From: Escherichia coli
GTDB taxonomy: Bacteria > Pseudomonadota > Gammaproteobacteria > Enterobacterales > Enterobacteriaceae
Length of the DNA: 407 bases
Assembly (NCBI RefSeq): GCF_003334335.1
Contig: NZ_QOWQ01000197.1
Direction: 5' to 3' (one strand)
The position numbers and the translations under genes were made by a program. The notes beneath the pieces were generated by a model. The model was not told the origin of the DNA, ran no database searches, and was given only the letters and a program-made list of their open reading frames with translations. Shown in pieces: positions 1 through 407 of the stretch. Each line of letters opens with the position of its first letter. Within the stretch, counting starts at the first letter, position 1.

Positions 1-407
1 ATCATCACGCCAATGGAGCCGATACGGGATGTCTGGGTAACCAGCCGTCGGGAGCAGGCCGACGCCAGCAGCATGGCTGCAGAACAGGCCGTGTCATTGC
101 ACAGTGCCCAGACCGGCTTCTGCTGACTAAGTCGGTAAATCATGTCAGCACAGTCAAACGCACCGGCGGCCTGCCCGCCCGGACTGTCAATGTCCAGCAG
201 TACACCCCGCACCTGGCTATCCGCCATTGCCTGCTGAAGACAGGCGACAATGCCGTCATAGCCTGTCATTCCGGAAAATGGCCGCATACCCCCCAGCCGG
301 TGCACCAGCGTGCCTGTCACCGGCAGTACAGCAATACCGTTCACCACCCGGTAAACACGGGCCGGTCGTTTACCTCCGGCCATGTACTCGTCCGTTTCAG
401 CCAGCAT
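1..407 (-). CDS. Phage prohead (head maturation) protease, peptidase S49 family, lambda gpC-like; partial CDS (C-terminal part continues beyond position 1; N-terminus may lie beyond position 407)
   Basis: The minus-strand frame with codons at 407-405 down to 5-3 is open for all 135 codons. The translation contains the blocks RVYRVVNGIAVLPVTGTLV, RPFSGMTGYDGIVA, GVLLDIDSPGG-AGAFDCAD, KPVWALCND-CSAA-LLASA-SRRLVTQT and IGSIGVMM. From memory these align closely with lambda gpC (…SYQVMNGIAVLPVSGTLV…QPYSGMTGYNGIIA…GILLDMDTPGGMVAGAFDCAD…KPVWALANDMNCSAGQLLASAASRRLVTQTARTGSIGVMM…). Codon choice is typical of enterobacterial genes (CTG, CCG, GGC, GCC). The opposite strand shows only short interrupted ORFs. 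Confidence 0.9.
   Translation of the reverse strand, partial: MLAETDEYMAGGKRPARVYRVVNGIAVLPVTGTLVHRLGGMRPFSGMTGYDGIVACLQQAMADSQVRGVLLDIDSPGGQAAGAFDCADMIYRLSQQKPVWALCNDTACSAAMLLASACSRRLVTQTSRIGSIGVM
81..83 (-). other. Codon for the predicted nucleophilic serine of the S49 protease (Ser109 of the window translation, in the motif N-D-T-A-C-S-A-A)
   Basis: Plus-strand aga at 81-83 is TCT (Ser) on the minus strand. It sits in the block ALCNDTACSAAMLLAS, which aligns with the lambda gpC block ALANDMNCSAGQLLAS. As I recall, the Ser in that block (Ser166) is the proposed catalytic residue of gpC. The assignment rests on remembered homology, not on computation. Confidence 0.5.

Follow-up and report, generated by a model that had tools for sequence, protein, structure and literature searches.

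The head-maturation protease family to which lambda gene C and phage 21 gene 5 belong has been studied for decades in these two phages, and what it does in procapsid maturation is already known, as are the gene family and the nested arrangement of its scaffold. In lambda, the C protein, Nu3 and B, which is the portal protein, make up an initiator on which the major capsid protein E assembles; C is a protease, Nu3 is broken down ahead of packaging, and a peptide is removed from the N terminus of B (PMC3224144). The biochemistry of lambda gpC processing is known from Medina et al. (2010), as that work is cited in PMC3224144. Here we analyze a stretch of 407 nucleotides, hereafter the window, which is almost certainly a piece of a head-maturation protease gene from a temperate, lambda-like coliphage (phage 21-type), carried either as free phage or as a prophage.

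Translation of the window revealed that frame 1 of the minus strand is open throughout, from position 407 down to position 3 (135 codons), whereas the other two minus-strand frames contain five to seven stops each. The G+C content of the window is 60.7%, and a fully open frame of some kind occurred in 7.7% of mononucleotide shuffles; in G+C-rich DNA an open frame is therefore weak evidence when taken alone, and homology has to decide. The remaining closed open reading frames in the window are 30 to 39 residues long and all overlap the 135-codon frame; those on the plus strand (37 and 31 residues) and on the minus strand (30 and 39 residues) were rejected as unsupported. The ATG at positions 405-407 encodes an internal methionine, residue 54 of the protein, and the start of the gene lies elsewhere. 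Searching both strands of the window against Rfam (E up to 1) gave no match, and a promoter and terminator scan of the window found none. The features assigned to the window are collected in Table 1.

Table 1. Features of the 407-nucleotide window, with the evidence for each
Feature	Position	Strand	Evidence
Head-maturation protease/scaffold gene fragment, residues 54-188 of 501	1..407	-	135-codon frame, PhiR5_1 identity, PHROG 53
Start of Peptidase_S49 domain, window residues 93-135, running on beyond position 1	3..131	-	PF01343
Codon TCT of the predicted nucleophile Ser, window residue 109 = protein residue 162, motif ACSAAM	81..83	-	Alignment

Comparison with phage records by megablast showed that all 407 bases are matched at 100% nucleotide identity by Escherichia phage PhiR5_1 (PV340545.1, 30080-30486), an isolated phage whose record names E. 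coli C as host, in which the matching segment sits within a CDS of 1,506 bases (29921-31426) encoding a 501-residue product. Five PhiR12 phages followed at 99.3% nucleotide identity, phage 21 (M81255.1 gene 5; OL657228.1) at 98.0% and the Gifsy-1 gene annotated as 'Lambda gpC homolog' at 75.5%. The window differs from phage 21 by seven synonymous changes and one non-synonymous change (pN/pS 0.05), and the comparison with lambda gave a pN/pS of 0.40, both values being consistent with a coding frame under purifying selection. Judged by its sequence, the allele is of the phage 21 / PhiR5_1 type rather than lambda C itself. Among complete E. coli genomes, 1,934 of the 5,426 carry a match, at 3,026 places in all and with up to five copies per genome, and at least 10 complete chromosomes are 100% identical to the window among the matches listed. 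Given this abundance in E. coli chromosomes, a prophage is the more likely source of the window than a free phage genome. Nine of the 3,026 places lie on plasmids.

Relatives of the encoded protein are also widespread among phages: a protein-level search recovered them in 790 phage records spanning many genera, where the usual annotation is head maturation or prohead protease. The sequence-only reading had likewise called the family well known. Among the nucleotide-level matches of the window the same gene goes by different names, with 'head-tail preconnector protein Nu3', 'Phage capsid and scaffold', 'S49 family peptidase' and 'capsid protease/scaffolding protein' all in use.

The surroundings of the gene were read from PhiR5_1 (100% identical over the window), a prophage in the chromosome of E. 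coli EC2 (100%), phage 21 (98%) and lambda, and it is from these copies that we infer the context of the window. The gene order in PhiR5_1 is terminase Nu1, terminase A, W, portal B, protease/scaffold, D, E, FI and FII, followed by the tail genes Z, U, V, G, T, H, M and L, with the lysis genes upstream of the terminase. The head module has the same gene order in phage 21 and lambda, and the head-tail order of PhiR5_1 recurs in the EC2 chromosome. Seen in the orientation of the window, PhiR5_1, EC2 and phage 21 all have the portal gene past position 407, and the scaffold frame and the decoration and major capsid genes past position 1, as the sequence-only reading had expected when it placed the window inside a lambdoid head-morphogenesis module of phage or prophage. 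The tape-measure gene H of PhiR5_1 (L001:683-3255) is annotated as two CDS (683-922 and 922-3255), which could reflect a frameshift, a stop or an annotation split; H of the EC2 prophage is a single CDS (L002 11733-14255).

The EC2 copy also provided a view of the prophage as a whole. The Q antiterminator, replication and repressor genes lie on one side of the head and tail genes, with J, the tail fibre genes and cargo genes on the opposite side, and the integrase sought by the earlier reading as a mark of a prophage boundary was found at one end, where the neighbours of a tyrosine integrase and an excisionase are yecN and a gene for a DUF72 protein. This gene set, together with the integrase and excisionase, identifies the EC2 copy as part of a full lambdoid prophage. 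The integrase CDS overlaps the end of the DUF72 CDS by 19 bases (L005:10626-12983), which suggests that the prophage is integrated at or in the 3' end of the DUF72 gene. Apparent cargo was seen at two sites (L002:1-2509 and 28569-33966). Past the tail fibre genes are genes for a YadA-like adhesin and an S6 family (autotransporter) peptidase, and the interval from Q to the lysis genes holds those for a SASA family carbohydrate esterase and a nucleoid-associated protein.

Many lambdoid prophages in E. coli are defective, and the window might thus come from a decayed cryptic remnant in which the gene, though intact over these 407 bases, no longer serves the making of virions. The number of copies in E. 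coli, up to five in one genome and thousands across the complete genomes, fits such a history, as does the state of the EC2 prophage, in which a tail assembly gene is frameshifted and other genes are truncated. Against it, the window contains neither a stop nor a frameshift, is identical over its length to an isolated phage, PhiR5_1, and differs from phage 21 almost entirely at synonymous positions. We therefore regard a remnant as unlikely, if still the most credible of the alternatives to an intact phage or prophage gene, and a remnant would in any case still be phage-derived DNA, as the sequence-only reading had it.

The family of the encoded protein was determined by profile searches. The translation matched PHROG 53, 'head maturation protease' (E 4.3e-72, 245 bits), in which residues 4-135 of the window translation align with profile positions 55-186 of 583. 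Pfam Peptidase_S49 (PF01343) matched the fragment at E 9.6e-9, with residues 93-135 aligned to model positions 3-45 of 154; coverage of the model is limited to this part, as the domain begins only around window residue 93 and continues past the window edge. With the full-length protein, taken from a copy identical over the window, the same model gave E 2.6e-35 over residues 146-293, aligned to positions 3-151 of 154. The window thus covers the N-terminal part of an S49 protease domain, and the gene is a homologue of phage 21 gene 5 and lambda gene C. The proposal that the sole gene present is a gpC-type S49 prohead protease, to be checked by running the 135-residue translation against Pfam PF01343 and phage protein databases, is accordingly upheld by significant matches to both.

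The same searches bear on whether the gene might instead encode a cellular SppA or another housekeeping protease of the ClpP/NfeD fold, the case that the sequence-only reading had named as the one that would overturn it. Weak matches to cellular proteins were indeed obtained with the NCBIfam models TIGR00706 and TIGR00705, with Pfam NfeD1b_N and CLP_protease and with solved structures, among which B. subtilis SppA (3RST, 4KWB) matched the full protein over residues 77-289 at E about 4e-16 (3RST 3.5e-16) and E. coli protease IV (3BEZ/3BF0) more weakly; all of these reflect a shared fold, which for NfeD1b_N and CLP_protease is the ClpP/crotonase-like one. The scores with the SppA models (TIGR00705, TIGR00706 and NF008195) are far under the curated cut-offs (57.8 against 155.45, 39.8 against 311.45 and 18.1 against 746 bits), and although a fragment lowers such scores and would score low anyway, the score with PHROG 53 is about four times that of the best SppA model. 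All three contexts inspected, in PhiR5_1, EC2 and phage 21, are phage head modules, and every E. coli match is annotated 'S49 family peptidase', not SppA, among the matches listed. On the basis of the scores and the head-module context, we rejected a cellular protease as a reading of the window, its probability being negligible.

Equally improbable is that the window encodes the protease domain of a portal-protease fusion protein: PHROG 21, 'portal protein', matched at profile positions 546-665 of 1362 (E 4.7e-26), a weaker match that is explained by the fusion of the two proteins in some phages, but PhiR5_1, EC2 and phage 21 each give the protease a start of its own (with an annotated ribosome-binding site in phage 21), which overlaps the end of a separate, 530-residue portal gene by 11 bases and lies in a different frame, since 1593 + 1506 - 11 cannot be divided by 3; a fusion was accordingly rejected for these copies.

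Turning to the head-maturation protease itself, we identified residues predicted to act in catalysis by aligning it with lambda gpC and with SppA of known structure. The serine in the ACSAAM motif is invariant between the window, phage 21 gp5 and lambda gpC, in the last of which it corresponds to Ser166, and it aligns with the serine of the AASGG motif in B. subtilis SppA (3RST); from the S49 literature we take Ser162 to be the nucleophile. In the full-length identical copy, Lys214 (motif HKVDG), which is encoded outside the window, occupies the position of lambda Lys218 and aligns with the 'HA' position of chain 3RST, presumably the site of the K199A mutant. On this alignment, together with the S49 literature, a Ser-Lys dyad is predicted for the 21-type protein.

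The same gene extends beyond the window into a nested scaffold frame. An in-frame, Nu3-like scaffold in the 3' third of the gene is annotated with a ribosome-binding site in phage 21, and at the position of this annotated start PhiR5_1 has an ATG after AGGAGG (L001 8663), some 340 bases downstream of the window. In the 21 type, the scaffold part (L001:8061-8663, minus strand) contains three repeats of about 45 residues whose motif resembles RIMxxxEAxGRExxAxxLAxxPGMTVExARxIL. In lambda Nu3 the repeat occurs as one full copy, with a 36-residue insert ahead of it, and this difference accounts for much of the difference in length between the two proteins (501 and 439 residues). The phage 21 record also contains two matches to the CII-binding-site pattern (ttgynnnnnnttgy) on the opposite strand of gene 5 (L004:4411-4424 and 4645-4658), outside the window, which are probably mere pattern matches.

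The comparisons above show the sequence identity, the family, the conserved serine, the gene order and the purifying selection; how the 21-type protein acts, on which substrates, and how it is targeted we infer by analogy with lambda. A search of the searchable literature found no experiment on this protein. The full gene encodes a 501-residue protein whose N-terminal two thirds are predicted to fold as a serine protease of the S49 type (SppA/ClpP fold), with a Ser-Lys dyad, and whose C-terminal third would also be made separately, from the internal in-frame start, as a scaffolding protein equivalent to Nu3. As in the case of lambda gpC, a few copies of the protease may be built into the procapsid alongside the portal, scaffold and major capsid proteins. 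With the scaffold sequence at its C terminus, the protease could co-assemble with the scaffold inside the shell, and we suggest that this C-terminal scaffold domain, common to both products, would target the protease to the shell interior. The protease would then degrade the scaffold and itself and trim the N terminus of the portal protein, leaving the shell emptied for DNA packaging.

It is conceivable that the three-repeat scaffold domain, or this allele, has a property beyond those of lambda gpC, such as being a determinant that is sensed or evaded by a bacterial defence system. In phage Bas13, the prohead protease has been reported as such a determinant for type I CBASS (reviewed in PMC12409349), yet nothing in the window points to a role of this kind, and we consider it very unlikely here. 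The assignment is of value only for annotation, in that the window can be labelled as E. coli lambdoid DNA, of phage or prophage, and placed in the head-assembly module. Relatives are found in roughly a third of the complete E. coli genomes.

Among described proteins, the product of phage 21 gene 5 (UMO75420.1; 'head-tail preconnector gp5' in M81255.1) is the closest, with 98% nucleotide and 99% amino acid identity over the window and a single substitution, Ser to Arg at window residue 53. Its length of 501 residues, its nested scaffold frame and its neighbours are all as in the PhiR5_1-type copy, from which it differs outside the window by a few substitutions in the C-terminal scaffold part. 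Lambda gpC (NP_040584.1, S49 family peptidase) belongs to the same fold family, keeps the Ser and Lys positions and shares with the 21 type both the order B-C/Nu3-D-E and the nested in-frame scaffold, but it is shorter (439 residues) and its identity to the window is 67.5% at the nucleotide level and about 65-68% at the amino acid level (68% over 124 aligned residues). SppA (3RST, 4KWB, 3BF0) has in common with the 21-type protein the S49 protease domain, including the nucleophile Ser motif, and is a distant relative, whereas the 21-type protein has no evident membrane anchor or tandem domain and falls below the NCBIfam SppA cut-offs; the role of SppA is the clearance of signal peptides, and that of the phage protease the maturation of the procapsid.
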